A stretch of 64,000 nt of DNA from an uncultured bacterium (GTDB lineage: Bacteria > Krumholzibacteriota > Krumholzibacteriia > WVZY01 > JAKEHA01): contig CAZLLI010000001.1 of the NCBI GenBank assembly GCA_964560355.1, forward strand, positions 834-64,833. The letters are read 5' to 3'. Of this stretch, positions 1-20,290 are shown piece by piece. Below the pieces are notes generated by a model, which saw nothing but the letters and a program-made list of their open reading frames with translations, ran no database searches and was not told the DNA's origin. The position numbers and the translations under genes were made by a program. Position 1 is the first letter of the stretch. Each line of letters begins with the position of its first letter.

Positions 1-395
1 ACCGCCGCCATCACCGCGATGAGGAGAAGCAGGCCCGGGTAGGCCAGGGTGACGTCGGCGCAGCGCATCACCAGCACGTCGACGCGCCCGCCGTAATAAC
101 CCGCGAGCAGCCCGAGGCACGTGCCCAGGAGCAGCGCCAGCAGTCGCGACACCACGCCCACTTCCAGCGAGAAGCGCGCACCGTACATAACGCGGCTCAA
201 GATGTCGCGCCCGAAGGCGTCGGTGCCGAAGACGTGCGACGCGCTCGGCGGCGTGAGCGCGTGGTCCATGTCGATCGCGACGGGGTCGTGCGGCGCGAGC
301 CAGGGCGCGAGGAGCGCCGCCGTCACGACGACCGCCACCAGTGCCGCGCCCACCACCCCGCCCTTGTGCGCGAGAAAGCGCGTCATGTGCGCGCT
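1..395 (-). CDS. ABC transporter permease, DppC/OppC family (N-terminal part; gene continues past the window start)
   Basis: Minus-strand translation from the ATG at 395 reads MTRFLAHKGGVVGAALVAVVV...HVFGTDAFGRDILSRVMYGARFSLEVG. This is the typical DppC/OppC N-terminus with the periplasmic-loop GTD..GRD..SR motif. The ORF overlaps the stop of the upstream permease at 383. Confidence 0.8.
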
Positions 396-1318: not shown

Positions 1319-1370
1319 GGCGGCGCCAGCATACGCCCGCGCCCGCGCGCGCTGCAATCGCAGCGTTTGG

Positions 1371-2918
1371 CTAGTGCGCGACGCGCACGCCGGAAAAATC
1401 GTTGCCGAGGTAGAGGCTCGGGAGCCGGTAACCGCTCACGCGTTCGGCCACGATGTGGTGCGTGGTCGGAAAATAGAGGTAGACCCACGGCGCCTGCGCG
1501 TACACCAGGCTGTCGACGCGCGCGTACGCATCCGCGCGCGCGGCGTCGTCGAGCACGCGGCTCGCGCTCACGATGAGCGAGTCGACGCGCGGGTCGGAGA
1601 AGAATGAGCGGTTGCCGCCGCCGCCGCGATTCGCGGAGTGGAACAGCGGGAACAGGAAGTTTTCCGCGTCGGGATAGTCGGCGATCCAATCCAACAGGAA
1701 CGCGTCGACCTTGCCCGCGCTCACCGCCTGCTTGTACGCGCTCCACTCGCGCCGCACCAATTTCGCGTCGACGCCGACCGCGCTCCAGTAGCCCTGCACG
1801 GCTTCGGCGACGCGACCGCCCTCGGCGCTCTCGCGCAACCACAGCTCGAGCGACAGGTGCTCGGCGCCGGCTTCGCGCAGGAGCTCTCGCGCGAGCGCGG
1901 GGTCGTACTCGTATCCGGGGCGCTCGCGGTACCCCGCGATGCCGGGCGGGATCGACCCGTGCGCGGGGATCGCCTCCCCCGCCTGCAACACGCGCGAGAG
2001 CTGCGGCACGTTGACGGCGTGGTTGAGCGCGCGGCGCACGCGCAGGTCGGAGAAGCGCGGGTTGTTGAGCCCGATGTAGAACACGCGCAGCTCGGGGCGC
2101 TTGAGCAGGCGCGGCGCGCGCGCGGGGTCGTGCAAGAAGCGCGGCACCTCGGCGTCCGGGATCTCGAGCACGTCGAGCGTGCCCGACTCGAATTCGGCGA
2201 TGCGCGTGAACGGCTCCGGGATGACGCGGTAGCGCACGCCGGCGAGGTCGCGCGCGCGCCGCGCGTGGTGCGGGTTCGGCGTCAGCGTGACGCGGTCGCC
2301 GCGCACCCACTCCGAGAGCACCCACGGCCCCGCGCCCACCGGCACGTCGCCGGTGGGGGGACTTTCGGTGTCGACGATGCGCGCCGCCGGCAGCGCGAGC
2401 ATGGAGAGAAACGGCGCGAAGGGATCGTCGAGCGTCACCACCACGGTGGAGTCGTCGGGGGTTTCGACCCCCGCCAGCGACGGCGCGCCGCCGTCACGAA
2501 ACGCGGCCGCGCCGCGGATGCGGTCGAGCACCCACGCGCGCGGGGACGCCGTGGCGGGCGCGAGCACGCGCTCGAAGCTCGCGCGCACGTCGGCGGCGTG
2601 CACGGGCCTTCCGGTGGAGAAACGCGCGCGCGCGTCGAGGTGGAAGACGTAGCGGCGTCCGTCGCTCGTCTCCCACGCGCGCGCGACGCCGGGCACGAGC
2701 GCGCCGTCGGGCGCGAGTCCCACCAGCCCGTCGAACACCAGCGCGCAAATCTCGCCTTCGGCGGCGTCGACCGCGAAGGCGGGGTCGAGGCGGTTGGGCG
2801 CGGTCTCGAGCGCGAGCTCGAGCATCGGGGACGACGCGCGCTCGCGCCCGCACCCCGCCGCGAGCGCGCACGCCGCGGAAAGCGCGAAGGCGACCACGCG
2901 CACGCGCGCGCGCGTCAC
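1371..2918 (-). CDS. ABC transporter substrate-binding lipoprotein, family 5 (OppA/DppA-like)
   Basis: The real N-terminus inside ORF 1371..3428 is VTRARVRVVAFALSAACALAAGC, a signal peptide with a lipobox. The GTG at 2918 overlaps the TGA of the upstream gene (GTGA coupling). Everything upstream of residue 171 is Arg-rich shadow sequence. Confidence 0.8.
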   Translation of the reverse strand: MTRARVRVVAFALSAACALAAGCGRERASSPMLELALETAPNRLDPAFAVDAAEGEICALVFDGLVGLAPDGALVPGVARAWETSDGRRYVFHLDARARFSTGRPVHAADVRASFERVLAPATASPRAWVLDRIRGAAAFRDGGAPSLAGVETPDDSTVVVTLDDPFAPFLSMLALPAARIVDTESPPTGDVPVGAGPWVLSEWVRGDRVTLTPNPHHARRARDLAGVRYRVIPEPFTRIAEFESGTLDVLEIPDAEVPRFLHDPARAPRLLKRPELRVFYIGLNNPRFSDLRVRRALNHAVNVPQLSRVLQAGEAIPAHGSIPPGIAGYRERPGYEYDPALARELLREAGAEHLSLELWLRESAEGGRVAEAVQGYWSAVGVDAKLVRREWSAYKQAVSAGKVDAFLLDWIADYPDAENFLFPLFHSANRGGGGNRSFFSDPRVDSLIVSASRVLDDAARADAYARVDSLVYAQAPWVYLYFPTTHHIVAERVSGYRLPSLYLGNDFSGVRVAH

Positions 2919-4186
2919 AAATCGCCTTCCACCAGCTTGAAGTCGCCCACGCCGAACATGTCGAAGAACACGAAGGTGCGATTGACCGTGTAGTAGCGCC
3001 AAATCTCGTACGAGCCCTGCCCGCGCTGGTCCATCGCGGTGTCGATTTGCTCGGGTGCGCCGTAGCGAATGTAGACGCGCCCGCGATCCGAGCGCCAACC
3101 GGGACCGAACTGCGAGAACTCGCGCATGACGTATTGCACGCGCGACAGGTACTGCAGCAGGGCCTCGTTGTCGACCGTGCTGGGGTCGGGGTCGCGCGCG
3201 GCCCAGAACTTGTTCCACGCCGCGGTGCGCGCTTCCAGCGGCGCGTTGCGCAGCGGCTTGAGCTCCTCGTCGGTAGCGATGAGGCTCAGCATCTCGATGG
3301 TGTCGTCGAAGTCGACGCCCAGCATCGCGCGGGTGACGTCGATGCGCACGTCGGCGCTGGCGGTGGCGTCGCGCGCCGGGTCGAGCGTGTGCGCGCGCAG
3401 GTTCACGCGGTACAAGCCCGGCGACCAATCATCGACGTTGAAGGTGAGCAGGAAGTCGTCGTCGCGGCCGGCGAGGTTCAGGCGCCGCTTGCCGTACACC
3501 ACCTGGTGGTCGTTGGCGTCGATCACTTCATAGAAGACGTCGCACATGGTGGAGCGCTCCTCGTTGCCCTCGACGAACAGCGCGAACCGCACCGCGGGCT
3601 GGCGGTCGAAGCCGGAAACGGACGCGTCGGGCGGGGTGTCGGCCTTGAGCGTGGGCGCGACCTCGTGCCAGGGCGCGAACGTCTTCGGGAACGGCGTCGG
3701 CACTGTGATCACGGCCGGCGTTCCGAAGGCGAGTCCGGAGGCGAGAAAGTCGGGGACGCGCAACGAGGTCGAGCGCCGCATCCCGATGCCGGTATTCCGG
3801 ATGGTGAGGAGCGCGTCGATGACGTAGTCCCCCGGCGGGAGCTTGATCTCGCGCCACGCGCGCGATTTCATGTCGCGGCGCTTGGTTTCTTCGTACGTCT
3901 TTACGGTGGCGAAGCCGTGCAGCACGTAGGTGGTGGGCGGCGTGTTCTCCTTCCCCGCCGCGCGCAGCGAGATGTTGGCGTCGAAGCGCGCGTCGTAGTA
4001 ACCCTCCTTCTTCAGGAACACGAGCGTGCGGAACGGCACCTCGACGGTGATGCGCGTCATGGGCGTGCGGGTGGAGTCGAGGTATGCGTTGGCGAACAAG
4101 CCGAAGGGTTGCGCGTGCGCGCGCGCCGCGGAGAGCGCGAGCGCCGCGGAGAGCGAGATGGCGATCCATGCGTGTTTCGGCTTCAT
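2915..4186 (-). CDS. secreted GWxTD-domain protein (function unknown)
   Basis: Signal peptide MKPKHAWIAISLSAALALSAARAHAQ. The C-terminal region FGPGWRSDRGRVYIRYGAPEQID...YEIWRYY matches the GWxTD-domain consensus. Confidence 0.75.
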   Translation of the reverse strand: MKPKHAWIAISLSAALALSAARAHAQPFGLFANAYLDSTRTPMTRITVEVPFRTLVFLKKEGYYDARFDANISLRAAGKENTPPTTYVLHGFATVKTYEETKRRDMKSRAWREIKLPPGDYVIDALLTIRNTGIGMRRSTSLRVPDFLASGLAFGTPAVITVPTPFPKTFAPWHEVAPTLKADTPPDASVSGFDRQPAVRFALFVEGNEERSTMCDVFYEVIDANDHQVVYGKRRLNLAGRDDDFLLTFNVDDWSPGLYRVNLRAHTLDPARDATASADVRIDVTRAMLGVDFDDTIEMLSLIATDEELKPLRNAPLEARTAAWNKFWAARDPDPSTVDNEALLQYLSRVQYVMREFSQFGPGWRSDRGRVYIRYGAPEQIDTAMDQRGQGSYEIWRYYTVNRTFVFFDMFGVGDFKLVEGDL

Positions 4187-4252
4187 TTGGTTTGGGGGGC
4201 GGCGACGAAGGGAAGTTAGGCCACGCCCCTGCGGCGGGGCAAGGGGAACGTG

Positions 4253-5500
4253 CTACTCGTGGCGCAGCGCCGTGACCGGGTCCATGTCGCTCGCGCGGCG
4301 CGCGGGGTAGAGCCCGAACCCGATGCCCACCAGGACCGAAAACACCAGGGCCACGATGGTCCACGCGAGCGAGAACACGAACGGGAAGTGGATCAGCTTC
4401 GACACCCCGTACGCGAGCACCGTGCCCGCGGCCACGCCGATGATGCCGCCGACGCCCGTCAGCGTTCCGGCTTCGATCAGGAACTGGCGCAAGATGTCGC
4501 CGCGCGCGGCGCCGATGGCGCGGCGCACGCCGATTTCGCGCGTGCGCTCGGTGACCGAGACCAGCATGATGTTCATGACGCCGATGCCCCCCACCAAGAG
4601 GCCGATCGACGCGATGATGGTCAGCACGATTCCGATGGGGACCGTGATCTTCTTGACCAAGTCGAGGAACGACTCGCTGGTGCCCACCGCGAAGTCGTCG
4701 GCCTTCCCGGGTCGAAGGCCGTGCTGCACGCGCATCGCGCGCTTCACTTCTTGGGCGCCCTTCTCCAGGTCGGCGTCGTCGTGCACGGTGGCACCGAGCG
4801 TCACCACGTCGTTTTCCGTGTGGAAGTCCTTGGCGAAGGTGGTGTGCGGCACGCACACGAAATTGTCCGACCACGCCCCGAAGATCGAGTGGCGCGGCGC
4901 GATGGTCCCGATCACCTGGTAGCGCGCGCCTCGGATCACCACGTAGCGCCCGATCGGATTCGTCTCCTTGAACAGGTCCTTGGCCGGGCCCGCCGCCAGC
5001 ACCACCACGCGCGCGCGGAAGCGTTCCTCGCTCTCGCTGTAGAAGCGCCCGCGGTCGACGGTGAGCGAGAACAACTCCGGCAGGCGGTAGGTCGAGCCTA
5101 GGATGCTGGTGGGCGGCGTTTTTTCGCCCTCGTAGCGCACCACGAATTCGCCCTGCGACTCCACCATGAACACCGACGCGTCGACGCTCGGGCAATTGCG
5201 CGCGATGGCGGCGGCGTCCTCGCGCGTCAGCTTGGGGCGCCGCTCCAAGTTCTCCTCGTTGTCGCCCGACACCGCGAAGTCGAAACGCTGCACGTAGATG
5301 TAGGGGCGGTTGGCGGACGCCATGTCGGCGTAGATCTTCCGGCTCAAGCCCGAGAGCACCGTCACCATCATGAGCACGGTCGCGATGCCGATAGCGACAC
5401 CGACAATGAGGAGCGCCGACCGCATGCGGTGCGAGCGCATGACCTCGATCGCTTGCGCGACGTTCTCGTCCCAGAGGTTGTTACCGGTCGGCGTCTGCAT
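4253..5500 (-). CDS. MacB/FtsX-family ABC efflux permease (no ATPase domain)
   Basis: 415 aa. N-terminal TM helix, large periplasmic domain, then a C-terminal FtsX-like three-TM bundle (…GVMNIMLVSVTERTREIGVRRAIGA…). Confidence 0.85.
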   Translation of the reverse strand: MQTPTGNNLWDENVAQAIEVMRSHRMRSALLIVGVAIGIATVLMMVTVLSGLSRKIYADMASANRPYIYVQRFDFAVSGDNEENLERRPKLTREDAAAIARNCPSVDASVFMVESQGEFVVRYEGEKTPPTSILGSTYRLPELFSLTVDRGRFYSESEERFRARVVVLAAGPAKDLFKETNPIGRYVVIRGARYQVIGTIAPRHSIFGAWSDNFVCVPHTTFAKDFHTENDVVTLGATVHDDADLEKGAQEVKRAMRVQHGLRPGKADDFAVGTSESFLDLVKKITVPIGIVLTIIASIGLLVGGIGVMNIMLVSVTERTREIGVRRAIGAARGDILRQFLIEAGTLTGVGGIIGVAAGTVLAYGVSKLIHFPFVFSLAWTIVALVFSVLVGIGFGLYPARRASDMDPVTALRHE

Positions 5501-5501
5501 G

Positions 5502-6746
5502 CTACTCCGACCGCAATGCTTCGACCGGGTCGAGGCGCGCGGCGCGCAGCGCGGGGTAGGTGCCGAACACGAGCCCCAGCGCGATCGTCACCGCGAACGC
5601 GATCCCGACCAGGGCCGCGTTCACCACGTACGGAAGCACCGACACCGCCGACACCAGCGCCGCGATCGCGAAGCCGATCGACATGCCGACCACGCCGCCG
5701 AACACCGACAGCGTCGCCGACTCCACCAGGAATTGCCACATGATGGCCGCCTGCGGCGCGCCCACCGCCTTGCGCAGGCCGACTTCGCGCGTCCGCTCGG
5801 TGACCGAGACCACCATGGTGTTCATGAGCACGATGCCGCCCACCAGCATGGAGACGCCGACCAACGCGACCAGCGCCGTCATGATGCCGCGGCTGACCGA
5901 CTTCCACAGTGTGATGAGCTGCTCGCTCGACGCCACCGCGAAGTCGTTTTCGTCGCCGGGGTGGAGCCCGTGCCGCACGCGCATCGCCACCATCGCTTCT
6001 TCCATGGCGTCGTCCATGTGACGGATGTCGGCGGCGGCGATCTGAATGTCGACCGATTGGTTGGGGCCGAACACCTTGCGGTACGCACCCAGCGGAATGA
6101 TGACGAAGCGGTCGCGGCTCTGCCCCAGCACCTTGCCGCGCTTCGCCGCCACCCCCACCACGCGGAAGTGGCGGTTGCCGATGCGCACCGTGCTCCCCAG
6201 CGCCTCGTGCGGCGCGAGCAGGCCTTCGTACACGTCCCACCCCAGCAGCGCGACCTGCGCGTTCTCGCGGTCGTCGACCTCGGTGAGGTGGCGGCCGGTC
6301 GCGACCGGGATGTCGCCCACGTAGGGATAGTAGGCGTCGCACCCGGTGACCGTCACGTTGACGCTCTTCCCCAGCGACGACACGGTGACGTTCCCGGTCT
6401 CGGCGCGTGCGCTCACGTACGACGACCACTGTAACGATTCGCGCAGCGACGCCGCGTCCTCGCGCGTGATCCTGGGGTTGTGCATGAGCTTGTCGATGAA
6501 CTTCTCGAAGTCTTCGATGGCCTCGAAAAAGTTGACGCGCTGGACGGTGAAGACGTTGCTGCCTTCGGAGGCGACTTCGTTGCGCATGTATAGGTCGATC
6601 CCGCCCAACAGCGAGACCACCGCGATCACCGACATGATGCCGACGATATTGCCGAGGAGGGTGAGGAAGGTGCGCAGCTTGTTGGCGAGGAGCGCGTGGT
6701 ACGCGATGCGTACGCCTTCGAAGAGGACGCGGACCGACGGGCGCAC
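5502..6746 (-). CDS. MacB/FtsX-family ABC efflux permease, paralog
   Basis: 414 aa with the same architecture (…LMNTMVVSVTERTREVGLRKAVGA…). Two nucleotides separate it from the downstream permease. Confidence 0.85.
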   Translation of the reverse strand: MRPSVRVLFEGVRIAYHALLANKLRTFLTLLGNIVGIMSVIAVVSLLGGIDLYMRNEVASEGSNVFTVQRVNFFEAIEDFEKFIDKLMHNPRITREDAASLRESLQWSSYVSARAETGNVTVSSLGKSVNVTVTGCDAYYPYVGDIPVATGRHLTEVDDRENAQVALLGWDVYEGLLAPHEALGSTVRIGNRHFRVVGVAAKRGKVLGQSRDRFVIIPLGAYRKVFGPNQSVDIQIAAADIRHMDDAMEEAMVAMRVRHGLHPGDENDFAVASSEQLITLWKSVSRGIMTALVALVGVSMLVGGIVLMNTMVVSVTERTREVGLRKAVGAPQAAIMWQFLVESATLSVFGGVVGMSIGFAIAALVSAVSVLPYVVNAALVGIAFAVTIALGLVFGTYPALRAARLDPVEALRSE

Positions 6747-6750
6747 GCTG

Positions 6751-8034
6751 CTACCTCCGCTTGCGCTTCTCTTTCTTGATCTTCACCGCTTCGCCGTCGC
6801 GCAAGTCGCCGATGGTCTTGAAGGGACCCGACACGACCTGGTCGCCCTCGGCGAGTCCCGAGAGCACGACGAAGTGGCTCTGCCCCGCGATGCCGACGCG
6901 AATGGACCGGAAATGCGCGGAGCCCTTCTCCACCACGAACACGCCTTCGATCTCGCGCGGCTTGCCGTCGGCCGCGGTGGTGTCGGCGGCGGCGCTGTCG
7001 GCGGGGGCCTCTTTCTTCTCGCGCTTGCCGCGCCGGCGTTCCTCCGCGAGGCGCTCGGGGTCGCGCACGGTCAGGCACTGGATGGGAACCGCGAGCGCGT
7101 GCTTCTCCTCCGCCACTTCGATGTCGACGGAGGCCGACAACCCCGGCCGAATGTCGGGGATCGAATCCTGGATCGCGACCACCACCTTGAAATCGACCGA
7201 TTCCTGCCCCAGCCCCACCTGCGCGCGCAGCGCGCTGTTGCCGACCTCGGTCACGACGCCGCGGTAGGTGGTGTCGGGCTGCGCGTCGAGGCGCACGGTG
7301 GCCTTCTGGCCGGGACGCACGCGCACCACTTCGGTTTCGTCGACGCGCACCTCCGCCTCCATCTCCGACAGGTCGGCGATCGTGAGCAGCACGGTGCCGG
7401 GATTGTTGATGGTGCCCATGATCGCGCTCTCGCCTTCTTCCACGTTGAGCGCCGTGATGACGCCCGACATCTCGGCTTCGATGCGCACTTGCCGCAAGTC
7501 GTGCTGCGCCTTCTTGAGGTTGGCCTGCGCCTGCAGGTTCATCTCCTGCGCCGACCTCACGCGCGCCTGCGCCATGTCGAGCGCCGCCTTGGCGTCTTTG
7601 AGCTCGGTGTCGGAGGTAAAGCCCTTCTCGCCCAGCTGTACTGCGCGATCGTAGTCGTACTGCGCCTTCTGCAGCGCTGCTTGCTCGAGTTGGAGCGACG
7701 CCTGCGCGCCGCGCACCGCGGCGGCCAGTTGCTCCACCGCCGACTCGTACGGCGCCGCGTCGATCTCGAGCAAGAAGTCGCCCTTCTTCACGCGCTGTCC
7801 CTCGGTTACCTCCAGCTTGGTCACCTTGCCGATGGTGGTGGCGCTCACGTCGACCTTGCGCTTGGGCTGGATCTCGCCCGATGCCGTCACGACCTTGGCG
7901 ACGTCGCGCCGCACCACCTTCGCGACTTCGACCTCGGTGCGCTTGCCGCGCTTGACGGTCAGATTGATGCCGACCAGAGCCACCACCACGACGCCGAGCA
8001 CCGCCGCGAGGATCACCTTGCGTTTCTTGGTCAC
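6751..8034 (-). CDS. periplasmic adaptor (membrane fusion protein), MacA/HlyD family
   Basis: N-terminal TM anchor, coiled-coil segment (AAVRGAQASLQLEQAALQKAQYDY…), beta-barrel and lipoyl-like segments typical of MFPs. Adjacent to the MacB-type ATPase and permeases. Confidence 0.85.
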   Translation of the reverse strand: MTKKRKVILAAVLGVVVVALVGINLTVKRGKRTEVEVAKVVRRDVAKVVTASGEIQPKRKVDVSATTIGKVTKLEVTEGQRVKKGDFLLEIDAAPYESAVEQLAAAVRGAQASLQLEQAALQKAQYDYDRAVQLGEKGFTSDTELKDAKAALDMAQARVRSAQEMNLQAQANLKKAQHDLRQVRIEAEMSGVITALNVEEGESAIMGTINNPGTVLLTIADLSEMEAEVRVDETEVVRVRPGQKATVRLDAQPDTTYRGVVTEVGNSALRAQVGLGQESVDFKVVVAIQDSIPDIRPGLSASVDIEVAEEKHALAVPIQCLTVRDPERLAEERRRGKREKKEAPADSAAADTTAADGKPREIEGVFVVEKGSAHFRSIRVGIAGQSHFVVLSGLAEGDQVVSGPFKTIGDLRDGEAVKIKKEKRKRR

Positions 8035-8035
8035 G

Positions 8036-8740
<705 letters not shown>

Positions 8741-8823
8741 GGAAGCGCCAGCATAGCACGCGGGCGGGACGCCGCAAAGCGCCCCGCCCGCGTGGGTGGA
8801 ATCGGTGTGCGTGTCGAAGCGGT

Positions 8824-10212
8824 CTAGCGCGAGGTGACCTTGCGCCCGGTGGCGCGCTGCAAGTCGGCGCGATTGACGAGATAGTCGACGCGCGCGTCGA
8901 TCAAGCTCGCCTGCGCTTGTGTGAGCGACGCGCTCGCTTGGATGGTCTCGAGGATGGTGCCGGCGCCGACGCGGTAGCGCTCTTCGGCCAGGCGCAGGTT
9001 TTCCTCCGCGGCCGCGACGGTTTCCTCGGCCAGGTCGAGGCGTTCCTTGGCCTGGTCGATGTTGAGCACGATCTGTTTGACGTCGAGCACGGCGTCGATC
9101 TTGGCCTGCTGCAAGTTGTACTCGGCGATGCGCTGCTGCGCGTGCGCGTTCTGGATGCCGGCTTTGGTCTGGAAGCGGTCGAAGAGATTCCAGTCGAGGA
9201 AGATACCGACCGACCACACGTAGTTGTTCTTGAACACTTCGCCGTCGCCGGGGAAGGTGCGGTCGTTCCAGCCGTAGCTGAACGAACCATTCAGGGTCGG
9301 GTAGCGCGCCTTCTTGGTAACCGAAAGCCCGGCGCGGGCGGCGTCGACGCGCTGGCGGCTCGCGAGCAGGTCCGAGCGGTGCTCGAACATGTAGTCGACT
9401 TCGGAGTTGAGGTCGAAGTCGCCGGGCGTGAACTCGAGCGATTCGTCGACGTCGAGGGGCGCGTCCTGCGGAATGTTGAGCCGCGACTTGAGCCGCGCTT
9501 CCGCGAGGGCTTCGGCGTTGCGCACGTTCAACAGCAAGAGTTCGGCGTTCGAATAGTCGACGCGTGCCTGCAGATAGTCGGCCTTGGTGCGCGAACCGAT
9601 CTTGTAGAAGGCTTCGATTTGTTCGAGGTTGCGGCGCTTGGCTTCCAGGTTGGCGACCTGCACCTGGTCGAGGCGGCGCTGCCGCACCAGCTCGTAGTAC
9701 TCGCGGATGGTGAGCGCGCGCACGAGGTCGCGCGTGTACTCGAGGTTGTATGCCGCCGCGCCCGCGTTACCCTTCGACTGCGTGATGGCGTTGTAGTTCG
9801 CGCCCCAATTGAACACGCTCATCTGGCTCGAGAGCGAAAACGAATACTGCTCGTAGTCGAAGCCCGCGGGCCGGATGGGCCGGCCTTGGCTGTCGACGAC
9901 GATGCCCGTGGTCGGACCCGCCCACGAGTGCCCGCCGTACGCCCCCAGATTGAAGTTCGGCATGAGTGCGCCGTAGCTGCGCAGCACGTCGCTGCGAGCC
10001 GACCTCAATTGCTCGCTTGAAACGCCGACGTTGGTGGACGCGTCGATGGCGAGCGCGAGGCAGCGCTCGAGGTCGTAGCGATCGCCCGACGTCGGCGGCT
10101 GGGCCTGCTGGGTCTGGTCGGTCTGCTGGGTCTGTTCGCTCTGGGCGCGCGCAATCGGCGCGAGCGCGCAGAGGAATAGCATCTGGGCAACGATCGCCCG
10201 GCGAAAACTCAT
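8824..10212 (-). CDS. TolC-family outer-membrane efflux protein
   Basis: Start at M37 ([24 protein letters not shown] signal peptide). Two repeated alpha-helical/beta-barrel halves typical of OEP/TolC. Confidence 0.85.
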
Positions 10213-10348
10213 CTGGTCACCTTCCCATTGGCAAAAAACAAGATGCGGCCACCGCCGCCTGCACGTTCGCGAGCAAAAGACGAACGTAGTACGGCGGGGG
10301 GGGTTCGAATGTTCCGACATTATAGCCGCGAGGGCGGGTCGGAAGGGG

Positions 10349-10378
10349 CAAAAAAAAAGACGCCCCTCGCTCAGGGCG
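10349..10378 (-). terminator. rho-independent terminator after exbD
   Basis: On the minus strand: CGCCC-TGAGCGAG-GGGCG followed by T9 (plus strand shows the A9 run at 10350..10358). The hairpin overlaps the TGA of the 10371..10811 gene. Confidence 0.55.
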
Positions 10379-10811
10379 ACCGCCGAGTGGGGACGGCCGG
10401 TTCTTCGCGCTCGCTGGTAAAGGAGAGCCGGGACGCGCTCGCCTCTTTGAGCTCGTCGATCACGTCCGAAACGACGCCGTAGGGCGCGTGCTCATCGGCG
10501 TTGAGCGCCACCACCGCGTCGGGCGCCTCGAGCAGGGTGCCCGTGATGATTCCCTCCACGTCGGAGGCCACCACCAGCCGGTTGTCGATCGAAATGCGCC
10601 CGTCCTTGTCGATCCAAATATCCGCGACGTGCTCGCGCCCGGGCTTCTCGGTCGCCTCTGCGCTGGGGAGAACGATCTGCAGCCCGCGGTCGAGCCGAAA
10701 GATGGTGGTGGCCATGAAGAAGATGAGCAGCAAGAACGCGATGTCGCCCATCGACACGGTCGGGATGGTATTAGAGACGCGATTCTGGCGCGGAAATCGT
10801 CCCGGGCGCAT
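10371..10811 (-). CDS. exbD: ExbD/TolR-family biopolymer transport protein
   Basis: 146 aa. N-terminal single TM (DIAFLLLIFFMATTIF) followed by a periplasmic domain. Typical ExbD. Confidence 0.85.
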   Translation of the reverse strand: MRPGRFPRQNRVSNTIPTVSMGDIAFLLLIFFMATTIFRLDRGLQIVLPSAEATEKPGREHVADIWIDKDGRISIDNRLVVASDVEGIITGTLLEAPDAVVALNADEHAPYGVVSDVIDELKEASASRLSFTSEREEPAVPTRRSP

Positions 10812-10812
10812 G

Positions 10813-11229
10813 TCACTTCACCGTCTTGAGCGAGATGCGCCGGCAGTTGGCGAGCTTGATCTCGTCCAGAAGATCGACCATGAGGCCGTACTCGGCGTCG
10901 CGATGGATGGTGAGCAGCACCACCAATTGCGGGTTGGCAGCCAGGCGCTGTTCGACCAGCGCGCGCACGTTCGCGGGCGCGATCGCCTGTCCCTGCGCCT
11001 CGACGTGCCCGCCCGCCAGCGCGCGAATCTCGAGCACGTCCTTGGCGTCGACGCGCGTCGCTGTCACGGCCTTGCCCGGCAGCACCAACGGGATGCCTTC
11101 TTCGACCGCGAAGGTAGTCGTCACCACGAAGAACACGAGCAAGAGGAACGCGAGGTCCGACATCGACGCGGCTTGAAATTCGCACGCCCCGAAACGAAAG
11201 CGGGTCTTGCGGCGCTGCATGAAGTGCAT
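10813..11229 (-). CDS. exbD: ExbD/TolR-family biopolymer transport protein (second copy)
   Basis: The ATG at 11229 gives MHFMQRRKTRF…MSDLAFLLLVFFVVTTTF… (138 aa). Tandem with the first exbD, and its start overlaps the exbB stop. Confidence 0.85.
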   Translation of the reverse strand: MHFMQRRKTRFRFGACEFQAASMSDLAFLLLVFFVVTTTFAVEEGIPLVLPGKAVTATRVDAKDVLEIRALAGGHVEAQGQAIAPANVRALVEQRLAANPQLVVLLTIHRDAEYGLMVDLLDEIKLANCRRISLKTVK

Positions 11230-11231
11230 GG

Positions 11232-12068
11232 CTAGCTGCGCGTGAGCGGCGGCTTGCGTTCGGGGCCCTTGGGGTGCTCGAGGTCGATGAGCTCGTCGAC
11301 CAAGTCGGCGCTCGCTTCTTCCATCTCGAGCACGAAGCGGTCGATCTGCAGGACGAAGTACGAGTAGAACGCGGACACCGGCACCGCGATCATGAGGCCG
11401 GCCGCGGTGGTGATGAGCGCCTCCTCGATGCCCTTCGCGACCAGCTTGGCCGACACCTGCTCGGCGGCGGCGATGGCCGCGAAGGCGGCGATCATCCCCG
11501 TCACGGTGCCCAGGAAGCCGAGCAGCGGCGCGACGTTGGAGACCGACGCCAGCGCGAGCAGCCCGCGCTCCAGGTGCGCCATTTCGATTGCGCCCGCCGA
11601 CGCGATGGCTTTCTCCACCGCTTCCGGCCCGCGGTTCGCGCGCAACAGTCCCGCGTGCATGATGGCCGCGATGGGCCCGCGCGTGCGCTGGCACAACGCG
11701 AGCGCGGCGTCGGGGCCCTCGGTGCGCAGCGCCGTCGTCACCTCGACCATGAGCTTGCGCGTGTTGACGCGCGCGCGCGACAGCGTCCACATGCGCTCGA
11801 TGATCAACACCAGGCCGAGGATCGCGCACAACAAGAGCGGGTGCATGCACACGCCTCCCTTCGCGTACAACGTGCCGAGGGCGCTGTGGCCGATGCGGTC
11901 GAAGAAGCCCTGGTGGGCGGTGGTGGTGACGGGAGCGACGGAGAGGACGCTGTCGGAGTCGGAGGTCGCGACGACCCCCTGGGTCTGCGGAATGCCGCCT
12001 TGCGCCGACACCGTGGCCGGCACGAGCGCGAACATGACGAGCAGCAGAATGAGTCGCGACACGGTCAT
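11232..12068 (-). CDS. exbB: ExbB/TolQ/MotA-family proton-channel protein with N-terminal signal peptide
   Basis: Start preferred at M39 (MTVSRLILLLVMFALVPATVSAQ). A periplasmic N-domain, then a three-TM MotA/TolQ/ExbB core (…LLGFLGTVTGMIAAF…). ExbB with a signal peptide is typical of FCB-group bacteria. Confidence 0.8.
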   Translation of the reverse strand: MTVSRLILLLVMFALVPATVSAQGGIPQTQGVVATSDSDSVLSVAPVTTTAHQGFFDRIGHSALGTLYAKGGVCMHPLLLCAILGLVLIIERMWTLSRARVNTRKLMVEVTTALRTEGPDAALALCQRTRGPIAAIMHAGLLRANRGPEAVEKAIASAGAIEMAHLERGLLALASVSNVAPLLGFLGTVTGMIAAFAAIAAAEQVSAKLVAKGIEEALITTAAGLMIAVPVSAFYSYFVLQIDRFVLEMEEASADLVDELIDLEHPKGPERKPPLTRS

Positions 12069-12144
12069 CGGATCACTCGTGGTGCGCGCCGAACGCGCGC
12101 GCCGTGCGCGACCATAGCCGCGGCGGGGTCCATCTGTCAACGCG

Positions 12145-13707
12145 CTACTTGTCGGACACGGTCGAGCTGCGCTCGAGGACATAGGAGCCGTGACCGTCCC
12201 GGTCCACGAATAGGAATCGCATGCCGATGTCCTGCTCCTGCACCTGGTCGCGCTTCAGCATGGGGTCGCCGCCGGCGACGTAGATCCACAATTCGTAGGG
12301 TACGCCGGTGTTGTCCTCGGGGCGATTGCGCGCGTTGGGCGACCCGCCCGAAAGGGTGTTGCGAATCGTGGGCAGCGTGTATTGCTTCGACCCCACCGAG
12401 CTGAAGTTCATCGGATGGTACGGGTCTTCCACCATCGCCTCGGCTTCGAGCAGGGTTTCGTAGTTGAGCGGGATGACGTCCTGGATCAACTCGTCGGGCG
12501 GCCCGTAGCGCAGGTAGATATCCCCGCGCGGGCTGGTGATGGCGGCGCCGCGATCGCCGAAGTGCGCATTGATGTAGTCCATGCGTTCCACGAAGGTGTC
12601 GTACGCTTCGTTGCTGCCGCTGTCGGGCGTGGGGTCGAAGCTCTTCCACAGGGCGTCGAGGACTTGCTCTTGCTCGCCTGGCGACTTCTGCTGGAAGGCC
12701 TTGAATTCGTCGTCGCCGAGGAGGAAGCGCGCTTCCGCGAGGTACTCGCGGCGCGGGACTTCCCACGTGCGCAGATCCCACGCCACCGAGAAATCGCCGC
12801 TCTTCACGCGCGCGATCGACTGCCCCGCGAGTCCGAACGACAAGTAGAGCGTGTACGTGCCCGCCGGCACCGTGGTGAGGTCTTCGCTCAGGAACACGGG
12901 GTACGTGCGCAGCGCGGCGCCTTCCGGCGTCGGGTTGGGGAGCGTGCGCTTGGTCTCGCGCACGGTCTCGCCGGTCGCGTTCACGATCTCGGTGCGGAAG
13001 TCGAAGGTCGGCGCCTGCGCCAGCGAATCGGGGAGATACAGCTCGACGTACACTTCGAGCGTGTCCTTGTACAGCCCGTACATGCGCGCGGCGTTGGGCT
13101 GGTACTTGCGAATCCCCTGCTCGCGCGGGTCCACCGACCACACGAACAGCGGCGTGCTGAACGACGCTTCGTCGTCGGGGATTTCGGGGAGGTTGAGGCG
13201 AACGCGTCGCACCGAGGAAGTCTTGTTCTGGTTCTTGATCAGCCCGACGATGCTCACCTTGGGCGCGTCGAGGTTCTCGAGCGACACCGAGAGCCAGTAG
13301 CCGCCGGCAGCGAGGTGCATTTGCTTGACGACGGTCTGGAACGCGAGCGAGGTCTCGACGCGCGACGGGTCGGTCTCCGCGAAGGTCATGGTCTCCTTCT
13401 GCTTGACGACTTCCTTGCCGGTGTCGTCGGTGAGGAGCCAGCTGAAGGCGACGCGCGTCTTCCACCCCGCCTTGCCCGCGTCCTTGAAGCGCAGCGACGT
13501 GTTGGGAATGCGCACGACGACGTCGGCCATCACCTTGTGGTCGCGGCCGCGGAAGGTGGCGGTGTCGAGATGGAAGTCGAAGTCGCCGCGCCCCGGGTGC
13601 TGCGCGAATGCGGGCAGCACGCCGGCCACAAGCAGCGCCGCGCCCAAGAAAAGATGGGCGCCCCGAGGGGCGCCCATGCTCGCGGAAATCTTCCGCACGA
13701 ACGTCAT
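12145..13707 (-). CDS. secreted GWxTD-family paralog (degenerate motif)
   Basis: Signal peptide MGAPRGAHLFLGAALLVAGVLPAFAQ. The C-terminal region HFGDRGAAITSPRGDIYLRYGPPDELI…YELWIY aligns with the GWxTD region of the 2915..4186 protein. The GW dipeptide itself is absent. Confidence 0.6.
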   Translation of the reverse strand: MTFVRKISASMGAPRGAHLFLGAALLVAGVLPAFAQHPGRGDFDFHLDTATFRGRDHKVMADVVVRIPNTSLRFKDAGKAGWKTRVAFSWLLTDDTGKEVVKQKETMTFAETDPSRVETSLAFQTVVKQMHLAAGGYWLSVSLENLDAPKVSIVGLIKNQNKTSSVRRVRLNLPEIPDDEASFSTPLFVWSVDPREQGIRKYQPNAARMYGLYKDTLEVYVELYLPDSLAQAPTFDFRTEIVNATGETVRETKRTLPNPTPEGAALRTYPVFLSEDLTTVPAGTYTLYLSFGLAGQSIARVKSGDFSVAWDLRTWEVPRREYLAEARFLLGDDEFKAFQQKSPGEQEQVLDALWKSFDPTPDSGSNEAYDTFVERMDYINAHFGDRGAAITSPRGDIYLRYGPPDELIQDVIPLNYETLLEAEAMVEDPYHPMNFSSVGSKQYTLPTIRNTLSGGSPNARNRPEDNTGVPYELWIYVAGGDPMLKRDQVQEQDIGMRFLFVDRDGHGSYVLERSSTVSDK

Positions 13708-13711
13708 ATCT

Positions 13712-14668
13712 CTAGTACGTGAAGCCGAGAGAAATGCGGTGGACATCGCCCAAGAAGTCATAGTCGTTCCACGCGTAGTCGAACGTGAGGTCCGAGGTCT
13801 GACTGGTGTCGATGCGCAGGCCCATGCCCGCCGAGAGTCCCTCGCTGTCGGTGTTGAAGTTGTAGCCGCCGCGCAGGAAGAAGAACTGGTTGAACCCGTA
13901 TTCGGCGCCCAGGTTGATGCGCTCCTGGTTGTCCGACGGGTGCGTGAACTCGAATACGCCCTGCAGGCTGTTCACGCCCTGCGAGTACGGTGTCGCCGCC
14001 ATCGCGACCTTGAACTGCGTCGGCATCTTGGAGCTGCGGTCGTCGTAGTCGACCTCGCCGCCCAAGCTCTGGATCATCATGCCGAGGCGCATGCCCCACA
14101 GGCCAATGCGATAGATCAAGCCGAAGTCGAACGCAAACGTGTTGACGCTCTTCTCCGCGAGACCCGAGTGGATGAAATGCACGGTCGCGCCCGACGAGAA
14201 CTTGTCGGTGAAGAACTTCGCGTACGACAAGCCGAACGACATGTCGCCGGCGTCGAACTCTTCGCCCGTGCCCTGCGGCAAGAAGACGGTGCGCACGACC
14301 TGCGGATCCATGGTGAGAGCGCGCGCGCTTACACCCCAGGTGCCGGGGACGAACGGCAGCGTGAACGCGCCCGCCGCGTAGTTGAGCTTGATGTCCGCGG
14401 GCCACCACGTGTACGAAAGCGACACGTCGGTGCGCGTGATGTCGACCATGCCGGCCGGATTCCAGTACGTGGCGGTAGCATCGTTCGAGATGGCGGTGAA
14501 CGCGCCGCCCATCCCGGAACCGCGCGCCGAAACGCCGATCTTCAGGAATTGGAGGGCGTACGTTCCCACCTTCGCGAACGGCTCGGTGGCAAACGACTGC
14601 GCCGGCAACGCCGCCACGATCAGCGCTGCAACGACACTCTGTTTGATCCTCGATCTCACTTTTTCCAA
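13712..14668 (-). CDS. outer-membrane beta-barrel protein, PorV/PorQ (FadL-like) family
   Basis: Signal peptide. An N-terminal GSGMGGAFTAISNDATATYWNPAGM motif (FadL/PorV-type, with the NPA element). Alternating amphipathic strands ending in …ISLGFTY. Confidence 0.6.
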   Translation of the reverse strand: MEKVRSRIKQSVVAALIVAALPAQSFATEPFAKVGTYALQFLKIGVSARGSGMGGAFTAISNDATATYWNPAGMVDITRTDVSLSYTWWPADIKLNYAAGAFTLPFVPGTWGVSARALTMDPQVVRTVFLPQGTGEEFDAGDMSFGLSYAKFFTDKFSSGATVHFIHSGLAEKSVNTFAFDFGLIYRIGLWGMRLGMMIQSLGGEVDYDDRSSKMPTQFKVAMAATPYSQGVNSLQGVFEFTHPSDNQERINLGAEYGFNQFFFLRGGYNFNTDSEGLSAGMGLRIDTSQTSDLTFDYAWNDYDFLGDVHRISLGFTY

Positions 14669-14698
14669 CCTCCTGGAAGGAAACCGGCCCGGCCGGAT

Positions 14699-17600
14699 CT
14701 AGAACTCGAACCCGAGACCCAGGCGCCACAAGCGGTGGGTTTCCCAAATCGTCGGGTCGAACACCGGGTTGAAATCGTCCCGGCCGTCGGCGTTCTGGTC
14801 TTGGAGGTACGCGCCGCCGTATTCCCCCGTCTCCGTCAAATAAGAACCGTTGTCCATGGTGGCCGCTACCAGTCCGGGGAACGCGCCCGGGGCGTCGCCG
14901 CCCGGCAGGAGCACGTCCTCATCCAACAAATTGCGGCCCTCGAAGAACAGTGTCAACTCACGACCATACACGTTGAAGAGCTTTCTGCCCTGGATGCTCA
15001 GCTTGTGGGTCGGCTCCAGGCGGCGGGAGTTCTCCCAGGTGGGGTCGTTCAAGCGCGCGAAGCGGTCGACCGGCGTCCACGGGAGGCCCGAGCCGTACTG
15101 GTAGATCATCGTCGCGCCCCACTTGTTGCGGTCCTGCAAGCGCAGCGTCACGTTGAAGGTGTTTCGCTGGTCCCAGTCGAGCGGGTATTCCTCGGTCGGC
15201 AAGTGGGTCAAACCCTCGGCCGAGCGCCCGAAGTCGGCGTCGCTGGCCACACCGTCGGCGAACGAGTAGGTGTAGTAAACCTCGAAGCCGAGACGGCGCG
15301 TGAGCCGCTTCTCGAGCGACAGTTCGACGCCGCGCGAGCTCGCGTACGTTCTATTGATGAAGCGGAACGCCTGCACGCCGGTCGAGTCGTCGGTGACGCG
15401 CGTCGACGAAATCAGGCCGTAGATGTCCTTGTTGAACACGACGAAGTTGCCCGCGATGTCGTCGGTGAACTGGTGCGAGATGCCGGCTTGGTACGACACC
15501 GTGAGCTCGGGCTCCAGGTTCGGGTTGCCGAGCGTCCCCGTCGAACCGACCGGGTCCTGGGTGCGGAACAAGTACACGCGGCTCGGCCACTGCGTGAAGC
15601 GGCCGTAGTGGAAGAAGAACTTGTCGCGGTCGGTGATCGGGAACGCGACGCCCAAGCGCGGCGACAGGTTCCACTTGAACTCGTCGACCGACTGGTCGAT
15701 CTCCGAGCTCGCGATGTCGATCGCGCTGTTGTTGCCGACCGTGAACCATTCGTAGCGAAGGCCGCCGTTGACGACCATGCCCTCGTAGTCCCACTTGTCC
15801 TGCACGTAGACGGCGCCTTCGGCGTTGAAGTTCTCGTAGATATTGACGTTTAGACCCTGCTGGATCATCCCGTTCTCGTCGATGCGGGTCTGCGCCGGGT
15901 TGACGCGCTCGTCGTCGTTGAGATCGTTATAAAGGAGCTGAATACCGGTCTTGATGCGGTGCCCCTTGAACTGGTCCGACACCACGTCGCCCTTGAAGAG
16001 GTACTGGATCGACTCCTGGTCCGAATAGAACGGATAGTCGTACGCGGTGACGAAATACGGAAAGTCGTCGTCGGTGTACCAGACAGCGTTCGACACGCCC
16101 GCGTTCAGGTAGGTGCCGTCGGGCAGCGTGACCGGCAGGCCCGCGGTCGAGAATTCGGCGGGTGCCTTCGGATTGCCGAGGTCGTCGAGCACGGTGCTCG
16201 AGGTCTTGAGGTCGAGGCGGCTCACCTTCAGCGTGTAGAGCAGCTTCGGCGTGATGTTGTGGCTGAAGCCGAGCTTGAGCTGCAAGTTCTCCGCGAGTGT
16301 CTGCGGCGTCGTGGTGGCCGAGTTGAAGGGCACGAACGACGAGTCGGCCCCTTGCGGCGCGGTCAGGTACGGCTTGAAGTCGCTCGCGCCGCGCTGGAAG
16401 CCTTCGAACAACGCCCACGGCTTGTAGCCGACGGAACCGTCGGGCGCCTGCTGCGCCTCGTCCCACACCACCGTCACGACGTTGTTGCCGATGCGGAAGT
16501 CGGCGGCGCGAAAATCGGTGTAGGTGACGACGTACTGGGTGCCGTCGGGATTGCGCACCAGGTCGATCACGTCGACCGGTCGCACGTTGAGCTGCGCGGC
16601 TTGCTTCGCCGGATCCGTGATTTCCGCCCACGGCCCGTGATTGATCGCGCGCAAACGGCCGAACTGGAATTGCTCGCGCCCGTTGACGGGCGGGCCGGCC
16701 ACGTCGAGGCCCTGGAAGTACCACACCTTCGACACGTAGCCCGAGATGTTCCAGTTGTTGATGTAGTCGTCGCCGCGCGACTCGGAGTAGATGGCTTCGC
16801 CGTCGAGCTTCATGCGCGCCATCTTGTAGGTGAGCTTGCCCTGCAGGTTGTACGCCGAGGTCTGTCGCTGCCGGAACTTGAGCCAGTCGGTGATCTTGTG
16901 CTCTTCGCGCGGCTCGATGGTGGTGTTCTCGGTGTCGCTCCAGGTCGCTTCGCCCGACATGTAGTAGCGCAGGTTCTTCCACCAGGTGGGACCGCCGAAG
17001 CCCAAGCTCAAGCGGTCGAAGTTGGTGTAGGTCTTGTCGGAGCGGCCGAAGTCGTCGGTGAAGTAGCGCACTTCGCCGCCGAAGGTCGCGCCGCCTTCCT
17101 TGGTCGCGATATTGATGACGGCCGACTGCGCGTCGCCGTATTCGGCGTCCATACCGCCCGACACGATTTCGGAGCCCGAAGTGCCGAGCATGCCGACGTC
17201 GACCGAGCCGCCGCCGAGCGGGTCGGACACGGGGACGCCGTCGATCTGGATTTGGACTTCGTTGCTGCGGCCGCCGCGCACGTGCATGTCGTCGCCGGTC
17301 TTCACGATGCCGGCCTTGAGGCCGACCGCTTCGATGATGTCGTCGACCGGCATTTCTCCCAGCTGTTGCTCGGTGACGTTACCGGTGACCTTGGTCTCGG
17401 TCACCTCGACCATCGCTTTTTCCGCCGTCACGACGATCTCTTGGATCTGCGCGACCACTTTTTCTTTGAGGCGAAACGACGTCGTCGCGGCGGCTCCGAC
17501 GTTCACGACCACGCCGGCCTTTTCGACCGCCTCGAAACCCATCATCATCGCTTTGACGGTGTACGTGCCGATGGGCACGCCTTTGATCTCGAACTTGCCG

Positions 17601-17767
17601 TCGGTGAGGCTCATGGCACCCATGGTGGTGCCGACGACCATGACGTTTGCGTAAGGGAGGGGCTTACCGTCTTTTTCGGACACGACGGTTCCGGTGATGG
17701 AACCGGTTTGCGCCATCGCCAACGACGACGCCAATCCCAACAGCGCGACGACGATCGCACCGATCAT
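14699..17767 (-). CDS. TonB-dependent receptor with N-terminal carboxypeptidase-regulatory-like domain
   Basis: 1022 aa from the ATG at 17767; an alternative start is 17794. Signal peptide MIGAIVVALLGLASSLAMAQ. A CarbopepD_reg-like segment (GSITGTVVSEKDGKPLPYANVMVV…), a plug (…VVTAEKAMVE…IQIDGVPVSDP…), a long 22-strand barrel and the terminal …LGLGFEF. Confidence 0.85.
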   Translation of the reverse strand: MIGAIVVALLGLASSLAMAQTGSITGTVVSEKDGKPLPYANVMVVGTTMGAMSLTDGKFEIKGVPIGTYTVKAMMMGFEAVEKAGVVVNVGAAATTSFRLKEKVVAQIQEIVVTAEKAMVEVTETKVTGNVTEQQLGEMPVDDIIEAVGLKAGIVKTGDDMHVRGGRSNEVQIQIDGVPVSDPLGGGSVDVGMLGTSGSEIVSGGMDAEYGDAQSAVINIATKEGGATFGGEVRYFTDDFGRSDKTYTNFDRLSLGFGGPTWWKNLRYYMSGEATWSDTENTTIEPREEHKITDWLKFRQRQTSAYNLQGKLTYKMARMKLDGEAIYSESRGDDYINNWNISGYVSKVWYFQGLDVAGPPVNGREQFQFGRLRAINHGPWAEITDPAKQAAQLNVRPVDVIDLVRNPDGTQYVVTYTDFRAADFRIGNNVVTVVWDEAQQAPDGSVGYKPWALFEGFQRGASDFKPYLTAPQGADSSFVPFNSATTTPQTLAENLQLKLGFSHNITPKLLYTLKVSRLDLKTSSTVLDDLGNPKAPAEFSTAGLPVTLPDGTYLNAGVSNAVWYTDDDFPYFVTAYDYPFYSDQESIQYLFKGDVVSDQFKGHRIKTGIQLLYNDLNDDERVNPAQTRIDENGMIQQGLNVNIYENFNAEGAVYVQDKWDYEGMVVNGGLRYEWFTVGNNSAIDIASSEIDQSVDEFKWNLSPRLGVAFPITDRDKFFFHYGRFTQWPSRVYLFRTQDPVGSTGTLGNPNLEPELTVSYQAGISHQFTDDIAGNFVVFNKDIYGLISSTRVTDDSTGVQAFRFINRTYASSRGVELSLEKRLTRRLGFEVYYTYSFADGVASDADFGRSAEGLTHLPTEEYPLDWDQRNTFNVTLRLQDRNKWGATMIYQYGSGLPWTPVDRFARLNDPTWENSRRLEPTHKLSIQGRKLFNVYGRELTLFFEGRNLLDEDVLLPGGDAPGAFPGLVAATMDNGSYLTETGEYGGAYLQDQNADGRDDFNPVFDPTIWETHRLWRLGLGFEF

Positions 17768-17851
17768 CGTTCCGCGTCCGTCCCGTGGAAGCATTCGCGA
17801 AACCCCTTTCGCCTTCCGACACAAAGCCCGGACCTCCGGGGATGTGTTCAC

Positions 17852-19225: not shown

Positions 19226-19233
<8 letters not shown>
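18214..19233 (-). CDS. dppF: oligopeptide/dipeptide ABC transporter ATP-binding protein (OppF/DppF type)
   Basis: GESGCGKTT Walker [16 protein letters not shown] signature, and the C-terminal oligopeptide-transporter extension with Cys residues ([11 protein letters not shown]). Confidence 0.9.
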
Positions 19234-20284
<1,051 letters not shown>

Positions 20285-20290
20285 TCCATT

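Follow-up and report, generated by a model that had tools for sequence, protein, structure and literature searches.

Recent cryo-electron microscopy has shown that the type IX secretion and beta-barrel assembly (BAM) machines of bacteria of the Fibrobacterota-Chlorobiota-Bacteroidota (FCB) group hold lineage-specific subunits around PorV-like barrels. Here we analyze a locus in which two proteins of the GWxTD family, GWxTD-2 and GWxTD-1, are encoded next to a barrel of this kind and next to a pump of the MacAB-TolC kind, respectively. The locus lies within a stretch of 64,000 nucleotides (hereafter, the window) from an uncultured bacterium of the Krumholzibacteriota lineage (GenBank assembly GCA_964560355.1, contig CAZLLI010000001.1, positions 834 to 64,833 of the forward strand). 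The relationships between this locus and the most similar described systems are outlined below, before the evidence on the GWxTD proteins themselves.

In the type IX secretion system and the BAM complex of Bacteroidota, PorV-like barrels anchor partner proteins, namely, PorU, PorZ and BamH (PMC12611786). A PorV-like subunit, BamG, is described in the latter complex, and no GWxTD protein is reported in either machine (PMC12611786). In the PorV-PorU, PorQ-PorZ and BamG-BamH pairs, as in the window, a FadL-like 14-strand barrel of the PorV/PorQ family is encoded together with a dedicated partner, and the two presumably work together. Loci of Ignavibacteria, Bacteroidota and Gemmatimonadales also encode a large protein with a PorZ/PorU-like C-terminal domain. 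Unlike PorU, PorZ and BamH, the GWxTD proteins carry neither a type IX C-terminal domain nor a lipid anchor, which makes a role as surface partner unlikely.

The pump genes resemble those of MacAB-TolC, DevBCA-HgdD and YknWXYZ, with which they share permeases that combine MacB_PCD and FtsX domains, a MacA/YknX-like adaptor and a TolC-family duct. The locus differs from the MacAB, Dev and Ykn systems in its separate ATPase gene (in Escherichia coli MacB, the ATPase is fused to the permease), in the presence of two diverged permease genes, and in the one or two GWxTD genes that follow the permeases; none of the described MacAB, Dev or Ykn systems has a GWxTD component. Another shared trait, a MacB-superfamily ABC complex with an exported soluble partner, is found in FtsEX with EnvC, CwlO, RipC or PcsB, and in LolCDE with LolA. 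The likeness to FtsEX extends to an NlpC/P60 hydrolase encoded in the same gene string in relatives of the window, although this linkage is not universal; the GWxTD fold, however, is unrelated to EnvC, PcsB and LolA, and the window adds an adaptor and TolC. Finally, SusC/SusD loci with ExbBD-TonB likewise encode a TonB-dependent receptor (TBDR) with a CarboxypepD_reg domain and accessory outer-membrane or periplasmic proteins beside ExbB-ExbD-ExbD. The present locus, in contrast, has neither a SusD-like lipoprotein nor tonB, and its accessories are the PorV-type barrel and a GWxTD protein.

What is new in the present analysis is a linkage, at a fixed position and across phyla, of a very large uncharacterized protein family to PorV-type barrels and to a two-permease TolC pump. 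This linkage provides the first concrete, testable partners for the GWxTD family, rather than a demonstrated mechanism. It suggests, with a probability that we put at roughly 0.4, that the GWxTD proteins act in pairs in the periplasm, as accessory or adaptor factors of machines that are located in the outer membrane or span it. The genes of the locus, called by Pfam and NCBIfam scans and inspection of start codons in the window DNA (~66% GC), are the following.

14699-17794, minus strand: TBDR-like outer-membrane barrel with an N-terminal CarboxypepD_reg domain (start at ATG 17767 or 17794)
13712-14668, minus strand: FadL-like 14-strand barrel of the PorV/PorQ family (NF033709, 212.8 bits; cut-off 90)
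12145-13707, minus strand: GWxTD-2 (TIGR04514, 59.5 bits; start set by the 100%-identical, 520-residue P0121)
11232-12068, minus strand: ExbB, a MotA/TolQ/ExbB proton channel (PF01618, 103.7 bits)
10813-11229, minus strand: ExbD, copy 1 (PF02472, 71.7 bits)
10371-10811, minus strand: ExbD, copy 2 (PF02472, 77.9 bits)
10361-10378, minus strand: terminator-like GC hairpin followed by a run of nine T (a consensus/pattern match only)
8824-10212, minus strand: TolC-family outer-membrane efflux protein (PF02321, 205 bits)
8036-8740, minus strand: stand-alone ABC ATPase of the MacB/LolD/FtsE type (234 residues)
6751-8034, minus strand: periplasmic adaptor (membrane fusion protein), MacA/YknX-like (TIGR01730, 171 bits; cut-off 94.9)
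5502-6746, minus strand: MacB-type permease a (MacB_PCD and FtsX)
4253-5500, minus strand: MacB-type permease b (MacB_PCD and FtsX)
2915-4186, minus strand: GWxTD-1 (TIGR04514, 97.6 bits; Pfam, 48.7 bits)
1371-2918, minus strand: family-5 solute-binding protein, SBP_bac_5, Opp/Dpp type, with a GTG start
383-1357, minus strand: Opp/Dpp-type ABC importer permease

Family scans thus locate on the minus strand, in one order from the TBDR to the Opp/Dpp permease, all the genes that a preliminary description of this DNA had named as a co-oriented string. The GTGA stop-start overlap from which it had proposed translational coupling of GWxTD-1 to the binding protein is present as well, at 2915-2918, and is kept in orthologs.

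To assess the linkage beyond this genome, we sampled 80 GWxTD loci, one genome per species and 1.2 Mb in total, from Krumholzibacteria, Latescibacteria, Zixibacteria, WOR-3, TA06, KSB1, Cloacimonadota, Ignavibacteria, Chlorobi, Bacteroidota, Gemmatimonadota, Aminicenantes and other Acidobacteriota, and annotated six-frame open reading frames (ORFs) in two ways, against the window proteins and by unbiased all-against-all clustering. Apart from GWxTD itself, the most recurrent neighbors are PorV-family barrels (19 loci), ABC ATPases of all types, not the pump's alone (19), proteins with a type IX sorting domain (16), TBDRs (16), LpxL, at Ignavibacteria-type loci (14), TolC (14), a protein of ~1,060-1,190 residues encoded between the TBDR and PorV genes (13), ExbB (13), MacB-type permeases (13) and the adaptor (12). 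Position is conserved along with content. The PorV-family ORF is directly upstream of a GWxTD gene, 36-149 bp away and on the same strand, in 16 of 18 cases, in lineages comprising Krumholzibacteria, Latescibacterota, Ignavibacteria/Bacteroidota and Gemmatimonadales. Each of the nine pairs of MacB-type permeases is followed at once by a GWxTD gene, at a distance of -7 to 99 bp; these pairs come from Krumholzibacteria, Zixibacteria, one Ignavibacteriales genome and a lineage that is unplaced.

The order of permeases a and b is kept even where the pump proteins are only 33-37% identical to those of the window, namely, at the Zixibacteria loci L009, L014, L015 and L025, the Ignavibacteriales locus L031, and L017. 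L009 reads ExbB-ExbD-ExbD-TonB-Yip1-TolC-adaptor-ATPase-MacB-MacB-GWxTD-GWxTD, and L017, whose GWxTD-1 is just 23% identical, reads PorV-GWxTD-2-ExbBDD-TonB-Yip1-TolC-adaptor-MacB-MacB-GWxTD-NlpC/P60. The module of Ignavibacteria, Bacteroidota and Gemmatimonadales consists of a TBDR, the large protein, a PorV-family barrel and GWxTD; in Aminicenantes, the GWxTD gene follows a TBDR and precedes a gene for a TPR protein. On these gene neighborhoods, the strongest predicted partner of GWxTD is the PorV-type barrel, not MacB or ExbBD, and what the recurrent partners (PorV-type barrels, TBDRs and TolC) have in common is the outer membrane. Because homologs do show a conserved transport neighborhood, with adjacency to MacB pairs and PorV recurring over several phyla, the idea in the preliminary description that the GWxTD proteins accompany trans-envelope transport survives.

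The large protein encoded between the TBDR and PorV-family genes, of ~1,060-1,310 residues, is seen at L023, L029, L051, L056, L057, L063, L069, L073 and L083 (~4.4-7.9 kb each) and at L043 (3941-7873). Its only recognizable part is a PorZ/PorU-like type IX C-terminal domain, and the sole match among PDB sequences is PorZ (5M11); it is probably a surface protein that the adjoining barrel would anchor. Such a neighbor gene is present at the Ignavibacteria and Gemmatimonadales loci and absent at the window locus. A different companion, a gene for a Yip1-domain membrane protein, lies immediately upstream of tolC in L009, L014, L017, L025 and L031, with none in the window; this upstream position in Zixibacteria, L017 and L031 is reminiscent of YknW in the Bacillus YknWXYZ system.

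Several observations weigh against the proposed role of GWxTD proteins in outer-membrane machines. The sample is biased, as similarity to GWxTD-1 was the criterion by which the loci were chosen. Conservation within the phylum says little about function: Krumholzibacteria orthologs at 39-51% identity retain the entire gene order, but also unrelated flanking genes, with GcvP and four genes of an Opp-type importer on the upstream side and NlpC/P60, rhomboid, RadC and MreB on the downstream side; the synteny spans ~25 kb, including GcvP and a split set of Opp genes. Tandem GWxTD-GWxTD pairs of WOR-3, TA06, Cloacimonadota and UBP2 stand amid Lon, aldolase, DnaE, V-ATPase and similar genes, with transport genes absent from the vicinity, and in other lineages, a single GWxTD gene lies beside MiaB, glycerate kinase or pyrimidine genes. 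At L007 (Latescibacterota), TolC is followed directly by GWxTD-1, with NlpC/P60 present and the ATPase, adaptor and permeases all missing; L040 reads TolC-ATPase-GWxTD and has neither permeases nor adaptor. The interpretation as transport accessories is thus supported in part: the adjacency to PorV and pump genes recurs across phyla, but many phyla have pairs flanked by housekeeping genes, and these two loci lack the permeases. At both of them, the inner-membrane pump has been lost and an outer-membrane protein is still adjacent to GWxTD-1.

The long synteny, which includes GcvP and the split Opp genes, raises the alternative that the gene order is simply inherited and has no functional meaning for GWxTD, such that envelope operons became neighbors by happenstance. 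We consider this unlikely given that the same immediate adjacencies are found in other phyla despite entirely different surroundings; under the assumption of positions uniform over +/-10 kb, we estimate the chance that a given gene falls within 300 bp upstream on the same strand at <1%.

The stand-alone pairs point to another explanation, namely, that GWxTD pairs are autonomous periplasmic factors of envelope maintenance, which might, for example, bind or process peptidoglycan, muropeptides or lipopolysaccharide (LPS), their genes being co-located or co-regulated with those of the machines but the proteins not physically coupled to them. The most widespread unit is indeed the stand-alone tandem pair among housekeeping genes, GWxTD-1 persists in L007 and L040 although pump genes have been lost there, and the neighbors include varied envelope-biogenesis genes, that is, NlpC/P60, an Opp-type importer (also in Gemmatimonadales, L061), M23 peptidase, LpxL, GT9 heptosyltransferase and TPR proteins; in L017 and L040, NlpC/P60 stands beside GWxTD in the absence of the binding protein. 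Against this, the PorV-family and MacB genes are fixed immediately upstream across phyla, a constancy of position not expected from loose co-regulation, and the GWxTD proteins have no recognizable hydrolase signature and match no known peptidoglycan- or LPS-binding fold. On balance, we regard autonomous action as the main rival, somewhat less probable than the favored role. If the link to the machines is only regulatory, the family would still be assigned to envelope biology, with the paralog pair as its common unit.

The pairs also bear on the history of the two paralogs. In a rough neighbor-joining tree, which is indicative only, the 'first' and 'second' members of the pairs fall in separate clades, and the two-paralog pair accordingly looks old. 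The arrangement in Krumholzibacteria gives the impression of a pair that was split, not of a bracket by design. We also considered GWxTD-2 as the ortholog of the PorV-linked GWxTD proteins of Ignavibacteria; sequence comparison does not bear this out, and the members that are not of the Krumholzibacteria type all score nearer to GWxTD-1.

In the layout of the locus, the preliminary description saw two GWxTD genes bracketing a single transport module. The two are diverged paralogs, as it had stated, with merely 29% identity across 76 residues, but the gene spacing and the terminator-like site downstream of exbD divide the string, so that the locus reads as three putative units rather than one supercluster: TBDR-PorV-GWxTD-2; exbB-exbD-exbD (followed by tonB in relatives); and tolC through GWxTD-1, the binding protein and the permeases, which in relatives extends through NlpC/P60. 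The PorV-family gene and the start of GWxTD-2 are 4 nt apart; the gap between GWxTD-2 and ExbB is ~50-216 bp, and that between TonB and TolC is ~240 bp in relatives. A pattern scan finds promoter-like sites at 18014-17985, before the TBDR gene, and, with TTGACA at 12140, before exbB.

Among the first codons of GWxTD-2 is a perfect palindrome of 24 nt, ATGGGCGCCCCTCGGGGCGCCCAT (13654-13677, minus strand), that contains a second possible in-frame ATG; the palindrome might influence the initiation of translation or might have arisen by chance in GC-rich DNA. The Opp/Dpp-type importer genes, for their part, are split around the envelope cluster. Upstream of the TBDR gene, 18217-22299 encodes a permease, a possible second permease and two ATPases, but no binding protein; downstream of GWxTD-1, 383-2918 encodes the binding protein and permeases, but no ATPases. 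The split is kept in the relatives L084-L086.

The proteins of the first two units are assigned with differing precision. The barrel domain of the TBDR scores 92.8 bits (cut-off 27) and its CarboxypepD_reg domain 63.4 bits, the Plug domain falls slightly below its cut-off (23.4 vs 23.9 bits), and the SusC/RagA model gives 43 bits against a cut-off of 368. No riboswitch or other RNA that could hint at the substrate was found upstream of the TBDR gene in a search of positions 1-24000. The adjoining barrel scores under the equivalog cut-offs of PorQ (97 of 220 bits), PorV (94 of 250) and PorV2 (74 of 325), models that are based on Bacteroidota, such that a divergent true PorV or PorQ is possible; it fails the BamG cut-off as well. 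By these scores, it is assigned to the PorV/PorQ family but to none of the PorV, PorQ and PorV2 equivalogs.

The scans confirm an ExbB channel (PF01618) and two ExbD subunits (PF02472) at the locus. A profile built from 8 TonB proteins of orthologous loci found no tonB (E<=10) at the locus or elsewhere within the 64 kb. The gene is missing also in a relative with 86% identity; in relatives with 39-51% identity, a TonB_C gene separates the second exbD from tolC. In the window, this position is reduced to a 160-bp spacer (10212-10371) with the terminator-like hairpin.

Both GWxTD proteins belong to the family by the NCBIfam model. GWxTD-1 exceeds both curated cut-offs (97.6 vs 28 bits for TIGR04514 and 48.7 vs 26.9 bits for Pfam PF20094), and GWxTD-2 exceeds the former (59.5 vs 28) and falls below the latter (16.4 vs 26.9). 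The motif that gives the family its name reads GWRSDRG in GWxTD-1 and GAAITSPRG in GWxTD-2, where both GW and TD are gone; clade mates of the latter have GVFTDRG or GALSDRG. In addition, GWxTD-2 contains an insertion of ~70 residues in the C-terminal domain. Near-identical proteins in databases carry the label Candidatus Krumholzibacteria, which places the DNA in this lineage and not in Gemmatimonadota, and P0121, the protein 100% identical to GWxTD-2, comes from an NCBI assembly.

Both proteins start with signal peptides that end in A-x-A|Q (AHA-Q in GWxTD-1 and AFA-Q in GWxTD-2), and a crude screen of 102 family members at the other loci flagged 71 N-termini as signal-like and 8 as lipobox-like. 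Pfam and NCBIfam scans detected no type IX C-terminal sorting domain in GWxTD-1 or GWxTD-2. In the absence of both this domain and a lipid anchor, the periplasm is the most economical location.

These features also argue against the notion that the GWxTD proteins are cargo, which either the MacAB-TolC-type pump or, by way of the PorV-like barrel, type IX secretion would carry across the outer membrane. Export of small proteins or peptides does occur in some MacB-type systems, and the GWxTD gene is the last one in the pump operon; however, folded three-domain proteins of ~45-55 kDa are too large for the TolC duct, and it is the large neighbor proteins in other phyla, not GWxTD-1 or GWxTD-2, that carry a type IX sorting domain. 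Export as cargo thus seems very improbable.

The AlphaFold2 model of GWxTD-1 (pLDDT 85) predicts two beta-sandwich domains followed by an alpha/beta domain of five helices and a four-stranded sheet; for this C-terminal GWxTD domain alone, pLDDT is 94. In a Foldseek search against the PDB, the beta-sandwich pair matched only generic Ig-like tandems of the scaffolding or adaptor type. A profile search of PDB sequences with the GWxTD domain gave no match, and no similarity to a known fold that binds peptidoglycan or LPS emerged, so that the modeled alpha/beta domain appears to be one that has no solved structural relative. Across 38 diverse members, Trp, Gly, Pro and Tyr residues are invariant and Asp, Arg and Phe are nearly so, whereas no Ser, Cys or His is conserved. 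Because the conserved residues show no hydrolase signature, the domain would be a module for binding or docking, not an obvious hydrolase. The view of the preliminary description that the proteins are accessory components rather than enzymes is, accordingly, plausible, inasmuch as they are exported and have no obvious catalytic residue set.

The family comprises 13,444 clusters at 50% identity. Homologs found with the domain profile are mostly fragments, all named solely 'GWxTD domain-containing protein'; the names of cluster members point to no cultured organism, and the searchable literature holds no paper on GWxTD, TIGR04514, PF20094 or IPR030959. The restriction of the domain to FCB-type bacteria, assumed in the preliminary description, does not hold strictly, as family members occur also in Acidobacteriota. 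At four Acidobacteriota/Aminicenantes loci (L058, L066, L071 and L076), the GWxTD domain is N-terminal, right after the signal peptide, and is followed by 350-500 more residues, so that the FCB architecture is reversed.

There is nothing unusual about the transport genes themselves. Both permeases match PF12704 (115-118 bits) and PF02687 (72-74 bits), and their divergence implies a heterodimer. An adaptor and an outer-membrane-factor duct are encoded beside them, and the equivalog cut-offs are not reached by the MacB (208-264 vs 966 bits), MacA (126 vs 342) and TolC (69 vs 495) proteins; the TolC-family protein is also under the cut-off of TIGR01844 (129.6 vs 225 bits). The pump is thus classified as MacAB-TolC/YknXYZ-like but not as an equivalog of these systems.

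The gene order around the pump brings to mind yet another scheme, in which GWxTD-1 would be a periplasmic adaptor that links a MacB-type (type VII ABC) mechanotransmitter to the downstream NlpC/P60 endopeptidase, with the Opp-type system importing the released peptides. Hydrolase control of this kind has precedents in FtsEX-EnvC, FtsEX-CwlO and FtsEX-RipC, and the order MacB-MacB-GWxTD-(binding protein-permeases)-NlpC/P60 is kept in Krumholzibacteria and Latescibacterota, with NlpC/P60 directly after GWxTD in L017 and L040. Nevertheless, the full adaptor and TolC speak for efflux and not for control of a hydrolase, the pump and GWxTD pair of Zixibacteria and L031 have no NlpC/P60 nearby, and L007 has GWxTD-1 and NlpC/P60 but no permeases. 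We consider such control conceivable but improbable.

Returning to the favored role as accessory factors of outer-membrane machines, we infer periplasmic residence, contact with partners and distinct roles for the domains from the observed gene content, export signals, domain architecture and recurrent adjacency, as follows. The GWxTD proteins would be soluble, Sec-exported and periplasmic, usually forming a pair of two old paralog types. GWxTD-2 would be produced together with the TBDR and the PorV/PorQ-type anchor barrel, next to the ExbB-ExbD motor. GWxTD-1, encoded directly after the two permease genes, would be made with a tripartite YknXYZ/MacAB-TolC-type ABC pump and be translationally coupled to the binding protein of the peptide importer. 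The two N-terminal beta-sandwich domains might serve as a docking or spacer arm, and the C-terminal domain, through its conserved aromatic and charged face (FWxxRDP...NE...GWxTDRGxxYxxYGxP), might bind the partner barrel or pump on its periplasmic side or, instead, a common envelope ligand.

A more specific version, which we offer tentatively and consider doubtful, is that GWxTD represents an unrecognized class of periplasmic subunits of the FCB envelope, forming A/B heteromers that dock under PorV/PorQ-type barrels, with their TonB-dependent neighbors, and under TolC-coupled type VII ABC pumps. If this is true, the GWxTD pair would fill a gap in the known makeup of FCB outer-membrane machines, with a fold unlike any solved so far, and such a class of periplasmic partners would extend the current picture of lineage-specific subunits in these machines.

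The rest of the window contains additional envelope-related genes. Three paralogous proteins of ~990-1,260 residues are encoded on the minus strand (49324-52287, 52300-55287 and 57595-61380), each with fn3/Ig-like repeats and a C-terminal FlgD_ig/type IX type-A sorting domain; with 31.3 bits, the third attains the TIGR04183 cut-off. The presence of sorting-domain proteins suggests that the organism has type IX secretion. At 37456-41991, also on the minus strand, a 1,512-residue ORF combines ABC-2-type permease regions with a C-terminal Peptidase_M1 domain (aminopeptidase N-like), an unusual fusion. A second, unrelated efflux system, an RND pump consisting of an AcrB-type transporter and an adaptor, is encoded beside a DUF1254/DUF1214 protein at 42869-48619 on the minus strand.

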